Below the pieces are notes generated by a model that was given only the letters and a program-made list of their open reading frames with translations, had not been told where the DNA came from and searched no databases. Of a stretch of 64,000 bases of DNA, positions 30,842 through 36,390 are shown one piece after another; positions within the stretch are counted from its first letter, which is position 1, and each line of letters begins with the position of its first letter. The stretch is from Candidatus Daviesbacteria bacterium (GTDB taxonomy: Bacteria > Patescibacteriota > Microgenomatia > Daviesbacterales > UBA10151), in the NCBI GenBank assembly GCA_016176335.1, contig JACOXI010000004.1, positions 82,303-146,302 of the forward strand, in the 5' to 3' direction. The position numbers and the translations under genes were made by a program.

Positions 30842-31795
30842 ATGTCAAGTTCAGTCAAGCCGGACCTGTCAATTATTATTCTCAATTACAATGTCAAGGA
30901 TCTTTTATTAAACTGCTTAGATTCTATTTTTAAAAACAAAACTAAAGAGGATAACTGGCAAATTATTGTGGTGGATAATGCATCTAAGGATGGCTCGGTG
31001 GAGGCTGTAAAGGAAAAATATGGTAGCCCTTCGACGAAGTTTATCCCGAGCGAAGTCGAGGGACTCCGGGTAGATTTGATTGAGAATCAATCAAATCTAG
31101 GATTTGCTCAAGGGAATAATGCAGCAATTCCAAAAGCAAAAGCGCCTGTGATTTTGTTTTTAAATCCGGATACAGTAGTGGTAAATGGAGCTATCAGTAA
31201 GTCACTTAAGTTTCTTATGAGCAATCCGGATATGGGAGCCCTGACCTGCCGTGTTGAGTTACCAGATGGAAGGCTGGATTATTCCTGTCACCGGGGTTTT
31301 CCTACTCCATGGAATGCTTTTTGCTATTTTAGTGGTCTTTCTAAAATTTTCCCCCACTCCTCTTTTTTTGCAAGATACACTGCATCTTATCTTGATACCA
31401 ATAAAACCCATGAGATAGATTGTTTAACAGGAGCATTTTTGATGGTCAGAACAATTGCCGGGGAGCAGATAAACTGGTGGGACAAAGATTATTTTTGGAA
31501 CGGAGAGGATATTGAATTCTGCTTTTCTTTAAAAGAGAAGGGCTGGAAAATTTATTTCTATCCTGAAGTAAAAATCATTCACTATAAAGGTTCATCTTCC
31601 GGTTTATGGAATACCGCAGCAAGTAGGGTTTCCCACCAAGTGCGTATGACTTCGGCTACTCATGCAGTCTCTGCCATGAGAATTTTTTATATAAAGCACT
31701 ACTATAAAAATTACCCTCCGCTGCTACGGGATCTCATACTTTTGGGAATCAAATCATTGGAACATTACAGAAAATTTAAGATTATGATGGGCTAA
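30842..31795 (+). CDS. family-2 glycosyltransferase
   Basis: LSIIILNYNVKDLLLNCLDSI...VVDNASKDGS...DxD region. Contains the 18-nt element at 31045-31062. Confidence 0.8.
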   Translation: MSSSVKPDLSIIILNYNVKDLLLNCLDSIFKNKTKEDNWQIIVVDNASKDGSVEAVKEKYGSPSTKFIPSEVEGLRVDLIENQSNLGFAQGNNAAIPKAKAPVILFLNPDTVVVNGAISKSLKFLMSNPDMGALTCRVELPDGRLDYSCHRGFPTPWNAFCYFSGLSKIFPHSSFFARYTASYLDTNKTHEIDCLTGAFLMVRTIAGEQINWWDKDYFWNGEDIEFCFSLKEKGWKIYFYPEVKIIHYKGSSSGLWNTAASRVSHQVRMTSATHAVSAMRIFYIKHYYKNYPPLLRDLILLGIKSLEHYRKFKIMMG

Positions 31796-31798
31796 AAT

Positions 31799-32707
31799 AT
31801 GGACATTTCAATTATCATATTAAGTTATAACACACAAGAGATTACTGATAAGTGTTTAAGAAGACTGCAGTTGTCACGCGTCAATTGTCAGAAAAAGCTC
31901 AAAAATAAAATCGAAGTCATTGTTTTGGATAATGCGTCATCGGACGGTTCGGTGGAGATGATAAAAAAGAACCACCCTTGGGTAAAACTGATTGTTTCCA
32001 AAGAAAACACCGGCTTTTCCAAAGGGAACAATATTGCCATGAAAAAAGTAAAGAATCCGTTCATCTTACTTTTAAATTCAGATGTTTATTTGGAAGAAGA
32101 AAGTTTATACAAAACACTTGCCTATTTTAGGGTCAATTTAAATTGTGATCTGTTGGGGGCAAGATTAAACTTTGTGTCGGGTAAGTTGCAGCCGAGCAGT
32201 GGGAATTTGCCAAATCCTGTTAATATTGTTTTTTGGATTTTGGGGTTAAGTTTGCTTCCAATCATTGGCAGTATCATCCCCCCTTTCCATCCTAAAAACA
32301 AAGGCTTTTTTTCTAAAGCTCATCAGGTTGGCTGGGTGATGGGAGCTTTTTTTGCTTTTAAACAGGAAGTTTTTGAGAAAACTCACGGGTTTGATGAAAA
32401 TTTATTCATGCATATGGAGGAAATTGAGTGGTGTAAAAGGATTTCTGACTACGGATTTAAGATTTGGTATGTGCCGCAGGTGGAAGTAGTACACCTTCAT
32501 GGGGCCTCAACTAATTTTGATTTAGGAAAGAGCTTTTTAAATGAGCTGAAGGGCGTCAAATATTACCTGCAAAAGTATTACCGCAATTTTTATTTGCCAG
32601 TTAAATTATTTTTAATTTTGGGTCTTGTTTTGAGAATTATAGCCTTTTCCTTATTAGGTAAAACCAAAAGAGCCAGAGTATATGTGGATGGGCTAACGGT
32701 GATTTAA
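31799..32707 (+). CDS. family-2 glycosyltransferase
   Basis: ISIIILSYNTQEIT...VLDNASSDGS...NSDV motifs. Confidence 0.8.
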   Translation: MDISIIILSYNTQEITDKCLRRLQLSRVNCQKKLKNKIEVIVLDNASSDGSVEMIKKNHPWVKLIVSKENTGFSKGNNIAMKKVKNPFILLLNSDVYLEEESLYKTLAYFRVNLNCDLLGARLNFVSGKLQPSSGNLPNPVNIVFWILGLSLLPIIGSIIPPFHPKNKGFFSKAHQVGWVMGAFFAFKQEVFEKTHGFDENLFMHMEEIEWCKRISDYGFKIWYVPQVEVVHLHGASTNFDLGKSFLNELKGVKYYLQKYYRNFYLPVKLFLILGLVLRIIAFSLLGKTKRARVYVDGLTVI

Positions 32708-32726
32708 CATTTATGATTTACGATTT

Positions 32727-34496: not shown

Positions 34497-34557
34497 GGCA
34501 AATTGGATCTTGACAAACCTTATACTGTTATCCTTATAATAGAATTAATAGACCAAA

Positions 34558-34803
34558 ATGAATCAAAAAGGAGTAGTTGCCCTAGCTGTCCCTTTACTTT
34601 TTCTGCTGATTGCAACAGTTGTGGTTTTTATCCTCGTTTCTCAAGGTATTATAAAAATACCTCTTAAAAATATAAATTTGCCTGGAGTAAAAAAAGAGGC
34701 TACTGTCTCTTTACAAACTCAATATCAAAACCCCTTTGATAAAAGTGCTCAATATGTTAACCCCTTTTCCGAGTACAAAAATCCATTTGATAATTTGAAA
34801 TAA
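34558..34803 (+). CDS. small membrane-anchored hypothetical protein
   Basis: 81 aa; N-terminal TM; immediately upstream of the repeat protein. Confidence 0.4.
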   Translation: MNQKGVVALAVPLLFLLIATVVVFILVSQGIIKIPLKNINLPGVKKEATVSLQTQYQNPFDKSAQYVNPFSEYKNPFDNLK

Positions 34804-34806
34804 AAA

Positions 34807-36390
34807 ATGACCGATATCTTTAGAATTACACAAAGCAAAATACTGGCATTTCTACTAGCTTTTATTTTGCTGTTTGCTATGGTGGCGCTAGCCCAAGCCC
34901 AAGAAAGCCCGGATGAGGTAGCCAAGAAATACAATGTTGCTTTTCCTATTGGGGAGTTGGGTGGGTGTACCGATTATGCAAGTTGTCGGACTTATTGCGA
35001 AGATCCTGTAAACTCGCAGTCTTGTATTGGTTTTGCTAAAGCAAAAGGTTTTTATAAGGAAGATGATTTACAAACTAAAAAAGATGTGATTTTGGATAAA
35101 GCTAAGGCTGCTTTAGGTTGTGATTCGCTTTCCTCCTGTCTGAATTTTTGTGAGGTGCCTGCCAACTACGATAAATGTCACAACTTTGCCCAAGGTAGCA
35201 ATTTATCCGGAGGTATTTTAATAAAACCTGATGGTGGTCAAATCCTAGCAAAGGCTCAACAGGTTTTAGGATGTAGCTCGGAAAACGCATGTAAGTCATT
35301 CTGTGAGGATGAATCTAACAGAGAAAAGTGTGCCCAATTTGCCAGGGAGACTGGACTTCGCGGCGGAGAACATAAAGTTGGTCCTGGAGGTTGTACTTCT
35401 GAATCAACTTGTAAATCTTTGTGCAGCGATCCTAATAATTACCAGGTTTGTTCCGGATTTTCTCAGGTATCAGGGAATACATTTACCGGGCCTGGTGGTT
35501 GTAATAGTGAAGAATCTTGTAGAACCTATTGTCAACAGAATGAGCAGGAATGTAGTAAGGGGTTTGGGGGTCCTAGAGGAAATCAAATAGGTCAAAATAA
35601 ATATAATCCTGCGGAGATGTGTAACAAAACCCCAAACTGTGCATGGCAAGGTAATACCTGCCAGTGTGGTTTTTATGGAGAGACTAATGAAACACGAGAG
35701 AAAGCCGGGGAATATGCGGCTTTTTGTCAATCAAATCCGGATAAATGCAAAGGGGGGCAACAAGGAGTATTTGAGAATGTGAAGCAGCGCCAAGAATTTG
35801 AAAGCTACTGTAGTCAAAATCCGGAAAAATGTAAACCACCAACCAGTGGGACTGAAACTTCCGGTGGAGACGACGGAAGATATCGTTATGGAGCTGATCC
35901 GGCCACAGAGTGTGCCAGATATGGTTGTACTTGGGCGGGAGGTTCGTGTCAATGCTCCACTACGTCTGGTAGTAATTATAATCCTCCTTCATCTGGTACT
36001 TATACCCCGTCTTCAGGTGGAGATAGTAGATATCCTTCTTATTCTGGCTCTGGTAGCTATACCCCTCCTTCATCGGGAAGTTACACTCCCCCTTCTTCTG
36101 GTAGCTATACTCCGCCATCGTCAGGCAGTTATACCCCACCACCCAGTGGAACTTATACCCAGCCTGCTTCTGGTACTTATACCCCTCCTTCATCGGGAAG
36201 TTACACTCCGCCATCTCAACCTTCTGAACCTGCTCCTCAGCAACCATCTCAACCAACTCAAGAATCCGCCCCATCTCAACCTTCCACTGAATCTGCTCCT
36301 CCACCCAGCTATACTCCACCAAGCGGAGTTCAGGGTGTAAGTACTGCAAGGGGATTGTTACAGGCAATTCTCGATTGGCTAAGACAATAG
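34807..36390 (+). CDS. secreted modular Cys-rich repeat protein with C-terminal (S/T)GSYTPPS tandem repeats
   Basis: Signal peptide ...AMVALAQA. Five ~40-aa modules, each G-C-x3-4-(S/T)-C-x2-(F/Y)-C-x4-6-C-x2-F. Seven or more YTPPSSGS repeats encoded by a DNA tandem repeat at 36040-36215. Confidence 0.7.
   Translation: MTDIFRITQSKILAFLLAFILLFAMVALAQAQESPDEVAKKYNVAFPIGELGGCTDYASCRTYCEDPVNSQSCIGFAKAKGFYKEDDLQTKKDVILDKAKAALGCDSLSSCLNFCEVPANYDKCHNFAQGSNLSGGILIKPDGGQILAKAQQVLGCSSENACKSFCEDESNREKCAQFARETGLRGGEHKVGPGGCTSESTCKSLCSDPNNYQVCSGFSQVSGNTFTGPGGCNSEESCRTYCQQNEQECSKGFGGPRGNQIGQNKYNPAEMCNKTPNCAWQGNTCQCGFYGETNETREKAGEYAAFCQSNPDKCKGGQQGVFENVKQRQEFESYCSQNPEKCKPPTSGTETSGGDDGRYRYGADPATECARYGCTWAGGSCQCSTTSGSNYNPPSSGTYTPSSGGDSRYPSYSGSGSYTPPSSGSYTPPSSGSYTPPSSGSYTPPPSGTYTQPASGTYTPPSSGSYTPPSQPSEPAPQQPSQPTQESAPSQPSTESAPPPSYTPPSGVQGVSTARGLLQAILDWLRQ

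Follow-up and report, generated by a model that had tools for sequence, protein, structure and literature searches.

A conserved two-gene cassette for an NPF-tail membrane protein and a cysteine-module protein lies beside a probably independent glycosyltransferase operon in Candidatus Daviesbacteria

Organization of the locus

The DNA analysed here is a 64-kb stretch, referred to as the window, from the genome of a Candidatus Daviesbacteria bacterium (Microgenomates, Patescibacteria or candidate phyla radiation, CPR). The interval 30842-36390 of the window contains five open reading frames (ORFs), all on the + strand and with the coordinates as first read from the sequence. Three encode glycosyltransferases (GTs), designated GTa, GTb and GTc, and are followed by the gene of a small membrane protein with a tail of Asn-Pro-Phe (NPF) motifs and by the gene of a 527-residue cysteine-rich protein, the Cys protein. 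An initial annotation of the DNA had described three GT2 genes, a small membrane protein and a 527-residue secreted protein in this order, and all of these genes were found as described. It had also proposed, from the co-location, a dedicated system for glycosylation of a surface protein, a proposal that was not borne out when relatives were compared. The interval is on balance probably made up of two independent units, a GT operon and a two-gene cassette, that are neighbours only in one subgroup of Daviesbacteria.

The GT operon consists of GTa (30842-31795, 317 residues), GTb (31799-32707, 302 residues) and GTc (32727-34496, 589 residues, a fused double GT2). A predicted promoter of the following gene pair (34510-34540) lies within the 61-nt gap after GTc. 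The pair comprises the gene of the small single-pass membrane protein (34558-34803, 81 residues) and the Cys protein gene (34807-36390), the product of which is identical to NCBI HYS96_03185. The order around the interval is atpG/atpD, three minus-strand genes, atpC, the five ORFs, PBP1a and pheT/pheS.

The gene pair and its promoter

The constant partner of the Cys protein was the small NPF gene. Two sets of loci were compared, 72 from species-representative genomes, 69 of which were usable, and 79 from metagenomes, 69 of which had enough upstream DNA to hold the small gene; the two sets have a few contigs in common. A gene for a small transmembrane (TM) protein with two to four NPF motifs was located directly upstream of the Cys gene, on the same strand, in 66 of the 69 genome loci, and the small gene was upstream of the Cys gene in all 69 metagenome loci, so that the pairing is near-obligate. 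It included members labelled Wildermuthbacteria, Uhrbacteria, Harrisonbacteria and Saccharibacteria, whose Cys proteins are 25-31% identical to that of the window, and the NCBI locus tags of the small and Cys proteins were adjacent in each of six named cases. The two genes overlap by 4 bp (ATGA) in most of the genome-derived relatives, and in the first four relative contexts a gene of 76-107 codons preceded the Cys gene with the same 4-bp overlap. Clustering of all flanking ORFs gave no third conserved neighbour beyond the Daviesbacteria synteny.

The small protein has one 24-residue hydrophobic segment, a predicted TM helix at residues 5-28 (34570-34641). A short basic N-terminus precedes the helix and a variable Lys-rich linker follows it, leading to a tail, Y-x-NPFD-K-x2-QYVNPF-x3-KNPFD-x-LK (residues 56-81, 34723-34800), with three NPF motifs. 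The residues P59, N68-P69-F70 and N75-P76 are invariant in the family, which has 279 members, none with a Pfam match and the named ones all annotated as hypothetical; the window protein had no match in Pfam or NCBIfam. A Lys or Arg residue always stands directly before the TM helix and the N-terminal tail is often as short as four residues (MNQK), which argues for a topology with the N-terminus inside and the C-terminus outside the cell. A type IV prepilin was considered and rejected, since there is no Glu at position +5, the N-termini outside Daviesbacteria are long and unrelated, and there was no match to the Pfam family N_methyl, whereas four true prepilin genes in the window do match.

The gap upstream of the small gene contains a TTGACA box (34510-34515), a 19-nt spacer and a TATAAT box (34535-34540) that ends 17 nt before the ATG at 34558. 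The site was found by reading the gap, and had been passed over by a standard scan limited to spacers of 16-18 nt. Irrespective of the gene that precedes the pair, 46 of 58 loci had a perfect TTGACA in the 80 nt before the small gene, as compared with 95 of 1,042 other ORFs in the same loci (9%), or 78 of 689 (11%) when the count was restricted to ORFs preceded by a gap of 40 nt or more. The conserved consensus -35 box points to an independent, probably strong transcription unit, and the consensus promoter as a whole suggests that the cassette is highly expressed. In many relatives (loci L001-L076) a -10-like box ended 6-8 nt before the ATG of the small gene, a short distance that suggests leaderless or near-leaderless cassette mRNAs.

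The Cys protein and its family

The N-terminus of the Cys protein (residues 1-31, 34807-34899) has the n-h-c organization of a Sec signal peptide, ending in ALAQA|QE in agreement with the -3/-1 rule, and the AQ(E) boundary is conserved in the alignment of homologues. By these features the initial description of a secreted, module-built protein with a low-complexity Ser/Thr/Pro tail appears to be correct. The protein has 32 Cys residues, an even number, in fixed groups. Five tandem four-Cys modules occupy residues 45-262 (34939-35592), their cysteines spanning residues 54-73, 105-124, 156-175, 196-215 and 232-249, with C54, C105, C156, C196 and C232 as the first Cys of each. The earlier description of a four-Cys module of about 40 residues in five copies was accurate as to the number of copies and inaccurate as to the spacing, which is GC-x5-C-x3-C-x8-C-x2-F (x6 in the fifth). 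None of the modules matches the pattern originally given, GC-x3-4-(S/T)C-x2-(F/Y)C-x4-6-C-x2-F, in which the last spacer is too short and the S/T and F/Y positions are in fact variable. The corrected pattern was found only in the Cys gene when the six frames of the window were searched. In 120 homologues there is no variation in the 20 module cysteines or in the GPGGC turns, which places the module pattern far beyond chance. That the module was previously unnamed also proved correct, as there was no Pfam or NCBIfam match at E<=0.01 and no PDB profile match at E<=1.

A second Cys-rich region follows (residues 266-383, 35602-35955) with the groups C-x5-C-x6-C-x-C (272-287), C-x6-C (307-314 and 335-342) and C-x4-C-x6-C-x-C (369-383). 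Two "CSW" modules (C-x4-5-C-x6-C-x-C) flank two helices that end in C-x6-C (FCQSNPDKC and YCSQNPEKC). The AlphaFold2 model of the Cys protein, calculated with a 120-sequence alignment, had a mean predicted local distance difference test score (pLDDT) of 69.9. Structure prediction of the four-Cys module had been suggested as a check, and the modules were modelled as helix-turn-helix hairpins with a pLDDT of mostly 85-97 over modules 1-3 and about 60-86 over modules 4-5. The CSW modules were modelled as a helix plus a beta-hairpin, giving knottin-like CxC modules. A Foldseek search of the PDB with the full-length model returned only noise (best E 0.74).

The linker that follows (residues 384-507, 124 residues, 35956-36327) is rich in Pro, Ser, Thr, Gly and Tyr (S35 P30 T16 G13 Y12), includes a QPS/APS-rich part and is predicted to be disordered, most of residues 387-513 having a pLDDT below 50. 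The seven or more YTPPSSGS repeats reported earlier were confirmed as seven contiguous SG(S/T)YT(P/Q)P(S/A/P) units with degenerate copies on either side. Tandem Repeats Finder gave a period of 24 nt with 6.8 copies at 36049-36212 and 68% matches, the unit-to-unit identity of the DNA being 70-74%. An exact stretch of about 30 nt, read from the sequence, recurs 120 nt apart at 36059-36088 and 36179-36208. A clean slippage tract was rejected because the units are only 68-74% identical. The suggestion that the DNA repeat makes the length of the protein hypervariable held to the extent that the tail is very variable in length across the family; a role of the repeat in driving this variation was weakened by the roughly 70% identity of its units.

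The last 20 residues (508-527; 36328-36390 with the stop codon), VQGVSTARGLLQAILDWLRQ, consist of VQG, a short polar stretch and an amphipathic helix of 10-12 residues. The final helix (517-526) was modelled with a pLDDT of about 89, and a mean hydrophobic moment of 0.63, compared with 0.46 +/- 0.14 for shuffled sequences, indicates an amphipathic periodicity of the motif. The isolated C-terminal tails had no match in Pfam or NCBIfam even at E<=10.

A search with residues 32-387 yielded 711 homologues. Those listed have no Pfam domain and, where the source gives a name, are hypothetical proteins of Daviesbacteria, Gottesmanbacteria, Roizmanbacteria and other Microgenomates. The region after the modules is plastic. 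The number of CSW modules varies, and homologues have either extra DPATEC.KY.GCSWTG.SCQC modules or linkers of the types (YSYPTP)n, (YGTPS)n and (APAPxQ)n. Between the last Cys and the C-terminal motif there were 0 to 164 residues (median 37) in 120 homologues, and the long linkers were composed of 24% P, 19.5% S, 12% T, 11% G and 9.5% Y. Given this plasticity, the YTPPSSGS tract is best regarded as one lineage's version of a freely evolving spacer. Tyr is a constant component of the linkers and recalls Tyr-rich adhesive or cross-linking proteins. In three Levybacteria-type loci (L049, L057 and L059) the linker is about 500 residues of YYTPP-type Tyr/Thr/Pro repeats before the same VQG motif.

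The C-terminal end, in contrast to the plastic linker, was retained: 107 of the 120 homologues have the motif V-Q-G-[VIA]-[STA]-T-x-R-[GSN]-[LF]-[LF]-[QDE]-x-[IL]-[LW]-[DNE]-[FLW]-[LF] 17-25 residues from the C-terminus, and more distant members have a Pro-rich spacer and then a short hydrophobic helix at the end, often closing with LFR (also IFR or FFR). Across about 1 Mb of related loci the VQG motif marked this family alone, and its confinement to one family makes it unlikely to be a general sorting signal. The Cys gene appears to be split at L005 (10001-11400, GCA_000402395.1) into a 335-codon ORF and a 136-codon ORF with the CSW module and VQG, a probable frameshift or assembly error.

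The module itself is more widespread than the family. A search of 1.84 billion proteins with a profile made from the five modules of the window gave 1,628 cluster representatives (1,325 at E<=1e-10), with up to 14 modules per protein and lengths that reach 1,555 residues. Many of these proteins likewise close with a Pro-rich stretch and a short hydrophobic helix, often ...LFR. Nine large module-bearing members were scanned for domains and three carried Laminin_G_3 (P0400), Big_13 (P0383) or Kazal_1 (P0366), each an extracellular type of domain and each beside the same four-Cys module. A surface or attachment role of the Cys protein is plausible because larger proteins with the same module carry these Laminin_G_3, Ig-like and Kazal domains. 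The same four-Cys module also occurs in an Azambacteria protein (L071, 4-2472) with a Kazal-like Cys pattern, recognized by eye, and a few copies are present in a Peregrinibacteria protein (L077, 9854-12118) whose tail appears similar to that of P0400. No description of the Cys module, the NPF-tail protein or the VQG motif was found in the literature, where the searches gave only a general account of Cys-rich extracellular proteins of Peregrinibacteria. All three are new to Pfam and NCBIfam, while a stalked secreted surface protein is a known kind of protein.

Co-occurrence of the pair and the glycosyltransferases

The co-occurrence of the GT and repeat-protein genes in relatives, a check that had been proposed together with the glycoprotein system, was determined by tblastn with the window proteins in loci with at least 4.6 kb of DNA upstream of the Cys gene. 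The GT trio was present within the locus in 12 of 48 genome loci and in 4 of 33 metagenome loci, 16 of 81 together, and in the other 65 informative loci there was no GT2 of the trio type within +/-7-10 kb of the pair. All of the trio-bearing loci hold close homologues (at least 45% identity) of the Daviesbacteria genes of the window, and the order atpC ... PBP1a-pheT is common to most of those with enough flanking DNA. In other Daviesbacteria (L001, L036, L038, L039, L041, L047 and L057) the atp genes, PBP1a-pheT or both flank the pair and there is no GT. The pair without GTs is located beside SecA in Gottesmanbacteria-type loci and beside PBP1a in other Daviesbacteria. The first four relative contexts, from a second Daviesbacteria, a Gottesmanbacteria and two others, likewise had no adjacent GT2, the flanking genes being SecA, PBP1a or unrelated. 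CP066688.1 is an example of a sequence that has the pair and no GT near it.

The converse arrangement was also found. In three relatives represented by long contigs (L079-L081), the order atpC-GTa-GTb-GTc and PBP1a were kept and there was no small or Cys gene at E<=0.01, an absence that applies to this locus. JAQUSJ01 and Ga0209516_1000001 are examples of sequences that carry the GT trio and no nearby pair. In a rough neighbour-joining tree, the GTc sequences of these relatives nest inside a clade whose members have the pair adjacent, which indicates that the pair was lost or moved and the GTs stayed. FabF/FabH-like ketoacyl-synthase genes are present between atpC and the GT trio in L079 and L080, as is a RelB/YafQ toxin-antitoxin pair in L080; these genes show that the junction of atpC and the GTs is itself variable. 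Relatives that keep the GTs and lack the repeat protein had been named at the outset as one sign against the glycoprotein system, and L079-L081 show this sign at the level of the locus; the companion sign, a classification of the GTs as cell-wall polysaccharide enzymes, did not emerge from the ambiguous sub-typing described below.

The glycosyltransferases

All three GTs matched the Pfam family Glycos_transf_2 (PF00535, cut-off 23.3 bits): GTa with 76.9 bits (E 2.2e-21), GTb with 65.3 bits (E 8.5e-18) and GTc with 118.2 bits over two stretches (E 4.8e-34). The two separate GT2 stretches in the 589 residues of GTc confirm that one of the genes is a fused double GT2. By hydropathy, GTa and GTc have no hydrophobic segment, while GTb has two internal ones (residues 138-163 and 263-290) and is probably membrane-associated. 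The hydropathy profiles revealed no N-terminal signal-like segment in any of the three, so that catalysis is predicted to be cytoplasmic. The trio is conserved as a unit downstream of atpC in Daviesbacteria, with GTa orthologues 66-73% identical in at least 14 loci.

The AlphaFold2 model of GTc had a pLDDT of 87.4, a predicted template modelling score of 0.88 and two GT-A domains, and matched 922 GT-A chains in the PDB at E<=1e-3. The best Foldseek matches were chondroitin polymerase K4CP (1.3e-21) and heparosan synthase PmHS2 (2e-19), followed among two-domain matches by ColGalT1 and LARGE1; single GTc domains matched the mucin-type polypeptide N-acetylgalactosaminyltransferases (ppGalNAc-T) to about 1e-13. 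K4CP was also the best sequence match in the PDB (1.5e-6). No substitution was seen in 46 orthologues at the GTc residues D39/N40/S42/D44, N91-N92-D93 and E207-D208, or at the corresponding positions of the second domain. None of the GTs scored above a family cut-off in NCBIfam, the best match being the rhamnosyltransferase TIGR01556 with 124.5 bits against a cut-off of 200.55. The sub-threshold matches were mostly exopolysaccharide (EPS), rhamnosyl- and galactofuranosyl-transferases, with GlfT1, HpsE, EpsD and PgaC among the models, and those of GTa were of the EPS type only.

The sub-typing of the GTs gave no single class, as the two-domain polymerases were best by fold and ppGalNAc-T matched too. 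The modelled architecture of GTc favours a polysaccharide co-polymerase, and a protein acceptor would be compatible with the fold. K4CP and PmHS2 likewise have two GT-A domains in one chain; GTc differs in that the identity is 11-14% and the TM-scores are about 0.3 because the domain arrangement is different. Pfam scans covered 49 of the 59 window ORFs of at least 100 codons, and in these there was no O-oligosaccharyltransferase, protein mannosyltransferase (PMT), flippase or priming transferase. The scanned ORFs do include the peptidoglycan genes PBP1a, MurT/GatD and GlmS and a type IV pilus cluster. The GT operon most likely builds an envelope glycan: its four GT2 catalytic domains would lengthen or polymerize the glycan of a cell-envelope polysaccharide at the inner side of the cytoplasmic membrane.

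Other genes in the window

The type IV pilus cluster (489-6199, +) has four N_methyl prepilin-like genes (489-1100, 1153-1728, 1718-2308 and 2314-2955), a PilX_N-like gene (2989-3843), PilM (3888-4925) and two unannotated genes (4931-6199) that are probably PilN/PilO. The segment 11458-18541 (-) encodes a 1,086-residue transglutaminase-core protein, a 295-residue protein with no assigned family and a 976-residue AAA-type ATPase. In the segment 19715-22014 (+) an IS200-like Y1 transposase (21319-22014) is located beside a 523-codon ORF with no assigned family. The region of about 20-24 kb has the lowest G+C content of the window (0.34-0.355 compared with about 0.40), and an element may have inserted here, just before the ATP synthase operon. 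That operon is split between atpD and atpC by the three minus-strand genes (28936-30401), including a Pro_CA_2 carbonic-anhydrase-like gene (30006-30401, -) that stands beside atpC in many related Daviesbacteria loci. Downstream, the segment 48009-51554 (-) contains the MurT/GatD pair for peptidoglycan amidation (48009-50167) and, after it, two paralogous genes (50192-50830 and 50913-51554) with weak glucosaminidase-like matches.

Discussion

The product of the cassette is most likely a membrane-tethered, disulfide-stabilized surface stalk or adhesin. In the mechanism that we propose, a self-promoted two-gene cassette (34510-36390), present across Patescibacteria/CPR lineages in the loci sampled, would be transcribed from its own promoter. 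The second gene would be translationally coupled to the first in most relatives and its product exported by Sec. The five two-helix four-Cys modules and the knottin-like CxC modules, with two disulfides per module, would form a rigid head. After cleavage of the signal peptide, the C-terminal helix would retain the Cys protein at the membrane, either unaided, at the level of the outer leaflet, or through contact with the small partner protein. The Pro/Ser/Thr/Tyr-rich spacer would cross the wall, so that the head could be displayed as a structural or adhesive surface element. A more specific version of this scheme, in which the C-terminal VQG/...LFR helix docks the NPF tail or the TM helix and the two proteins form an undescribed CPR surface apparatus for host contact or envelope architecture, is tentative, and we would not expect it to be right in all of its parts.

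Several observations weigh against the picture of a tethered stalk that is independent of the GTs. 1) The flank of the TM helix on the C-terminal side is richer in Lys and Arg than the N-terminal flank in 106 of 162 members of the small-protein family; the NPF tail could then be cytoplasmic, in which case direct contact with an exported protein would not be a means of tethering. 2) The C-terminal helix of 10-12 residues is short for a membrane anchor. 3) The disulfide bonding of the cysteines is an assumption, and no Dsb-type gene was seen in the window. 4) The adjacency of the GTs persists among proteins that are only 55-75% identical, and a functional link may exist in that subgroup. 5) In the models, single GT domains resemble the mucin-type protein O-GalNAc transferases at E values of about 1e-13.

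The last two points also count in favour of a glycosylated surface adhesin, in which the three GT2 enzymes would O-glycosylate the Ser/Thr/Pro (and Tyr) repeats of the adjacent secreted protein. The GT and cassette genes are on the same strand, 61 nt apart, this adjacency is kept in about 16 loci in spite of the sequence divergence, and the linker has the Ser/Thr/Pro/Tyr-rich composition of a possible substrate. We nevertheless regard this explanation as very improbable. The pair is found without a trio-type GT2 in most of the informative loci, L079-L081 have kept the trio with no pair beside it, the pair is preceded by a conserved promoter of its own, and the would-be substrate is absent or replaced in many homologues, in which the linker has from 0 to 164 residues. 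In addition, the GTs have no signal peptide, whereas the Cys protein is predicted to leave the cytoplasm through Sec, and the scanned window ORFs include neither an accessory Sec system nor GtfA/B, in addition to the four missing functions listed above. The resemblance of the small protein's charge pattern to the opposite topology raises a different alternative, that the protein is oriented with the N-terminus out and the NPF tail in the cytoplasm, where it would be specialized for the targeting, export or regulation of its partner, perhaps as a recruiter of SecA or the nascent chain, and would not act as a tether. Apart from the charge excess, this arrangement would fit the 4-bp overlap that couples translation of the pair and the location of SecA, which is immediately upstream in two loci of other Microgenomates lineages and lies near the pair in six loci. 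It appears unlikely, since a Lys or Arg directly before the TM helix and the four-residue N-tail are the mark of a signal anchor with its N-terminus inside, only a few lineages have SecA next to the pair, and we know of no cytoplasmic NPF-binding partner in bacteria.

Two other explanations concern the ends and the core of the Cys protein. The VQG motif, short hydrophobic helix and basic end could be a new cleavable sorting signal, with a putative enzyme that cuts at or near VQG and attaches the protein covalently to the wall or a lipid, the NPF protein being an accessory. The tripartite organization, the invariable position at the extreme C-terminus and the low-complexity spacer before it are all like those of known sorting signals, and the Pro-rich spacer and hydrophobic helix, often with an LFR, IFR or FFR end, are kept by distant members. 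The hydrophobic part, at 10-12 residues with Q/D among them, is too short and polar for a usual TM segment. Sorting signals normally mark several substrates per genome, whereas this motif is on one family only in the roughly 1 Mb of loci; none of the conserved neighbours resembles a sortase, exosortase or rhombosortase, and the NCBIfam models of sorting domains gave no match even at E<=10. A sorting function is for these reasons improbable, to about the same degree as a cytoplasmic tail. The likelihood is smaller still, comparable to that of glycosylation by the trio, that the four-Cys modules are metal sites for Zn, Cu(I) or Fe-S, with one Cys4 site per module, in an extracellular metal-binding, storage or redox protein. 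Four invariant Cys per module, with C-x3-C one helical turn apart on the same helix, is a geometry also used by helical Cys-lined metal proteins, the locus of one relative has copper-handling genes 5-9 kb away, and many CPR habitats are anoxic, which disfavours disulfides. There was no match, however, to a known metal-binding family, the copper genes are not conserved neighbours, and features such as the CxC beta-hairpin modules and the Kazal, Ig-like and LamG domains of relatives are those typically met in extracellular proteins with disulfide bonds. A disulfide-stabilized, membrane-tethered stalk or adhesin is retained as the most likely product of the cassette.

The locus can be compared with several known systems. 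The serine-rich-repeat glycoproteins of Gram-positive bacteria (GspB/Fap1 type) are likewise secreted surface proteins with long Ser-rich repeats of low complexity and adjacent GT genes. Here, by comparison, no SecA2/SecY2 or GtfA/GtfB (GT4) was present in the scanned window ORFs, the Cys protein has a predicted signal peptide of the ordinary Sec type, its C-terminus is VQG...DWLRQ and not LPXTG, and the GTs are not conserved partners. The S-layer glycoproteins and slg clusters of Geobacillus and Paenibacillus also combine a probably highly expressed envelope protein with GT2-type rhamnosyltransferase-like genes, and they carry O-glycans on Ser, Thr or Tyr, as the Tyr/Thr/Ser-rich sequence of the Cys protein could do in principle. 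The priming transferase, ABC exporter, O-oligosaccharyltransferase and nucleotide-sugar genes of those clusters were absent from the scanned ORFs, Pfam detected neither an SLH domain nor any other known S-layer anchor in the Cys protein, and the adjacency is limited to one subgroup. The resemblance to both types of locus is superficial, since their defining parts are lacking in the scanned ORFs and the co-occurrence test fails.

For the C-terminal end (VQG...LLQAILDWL), a functional analogy can be drawn with E. coli PBP5/PBP6, enzymes exported through Sec that a terminal amphipathic helix keeps at the external surface of the cytoplasmic membrane. The helix of PBP5 has more than 10-12 residues; in the Cys protein a conserved VQG and a long disordered spacer precede the helix, and there is no sequence relationship. 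The LPXTG, PEP-CTERM and GlyGly-CTERM signals have the same order of spacer, short motif, hydrophobic stretch and basic end at the extreme C-terminus, and differ in that the stretch found here is too short and polar, belongs to one family, has no cognate enzyme nearby and matches no NCBIfam model. By analogy, the end may work most like a PBP5-type anchor or a sorting signal and is a member of neither group. As to the Cys-rich head, large Cys-rich extracellular proteins with signal peptides, averaging about 1,650 residues, have been proposed to mediate attachment in Peregrinibacteria and were likened weakly to Myxococcus Cys-rich repeats (PMC4736985). In the passages of that report that were searched, neither the C-x5-C-x3-C-x8-C module nor an NPF partner gene is named; among the loci compared here, one Peregrinibacteria protein (L077) does carry a few copies of the module.

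Conclusions

The interval offers a caution for annotation, in that an adjacency confined to one shallow clade resembled a glycoprotein system and dissolved when relatives were compared. The four-Cys module, present in about 1,600 clusters of proteins, could be entered in the databases as a domain family of its own.

CPR bacteria are thought to live attached to other cells and, to our knowledge, hardly any surface component other than type IV pili has been identified in them. The cassette, which occurs in multiple lineages with a consensus promoter and proteins that have no Pfam or NCBIfam match, is a concrete candidate for a component of the CPR envelope or attachment machinery. If the proposed scheme is correct, it would represent a new extracellular four-Cys helical-hairpin repeat carried on a stalk of variable length, and a new anchoring principle, in episymbiotic bacteria.

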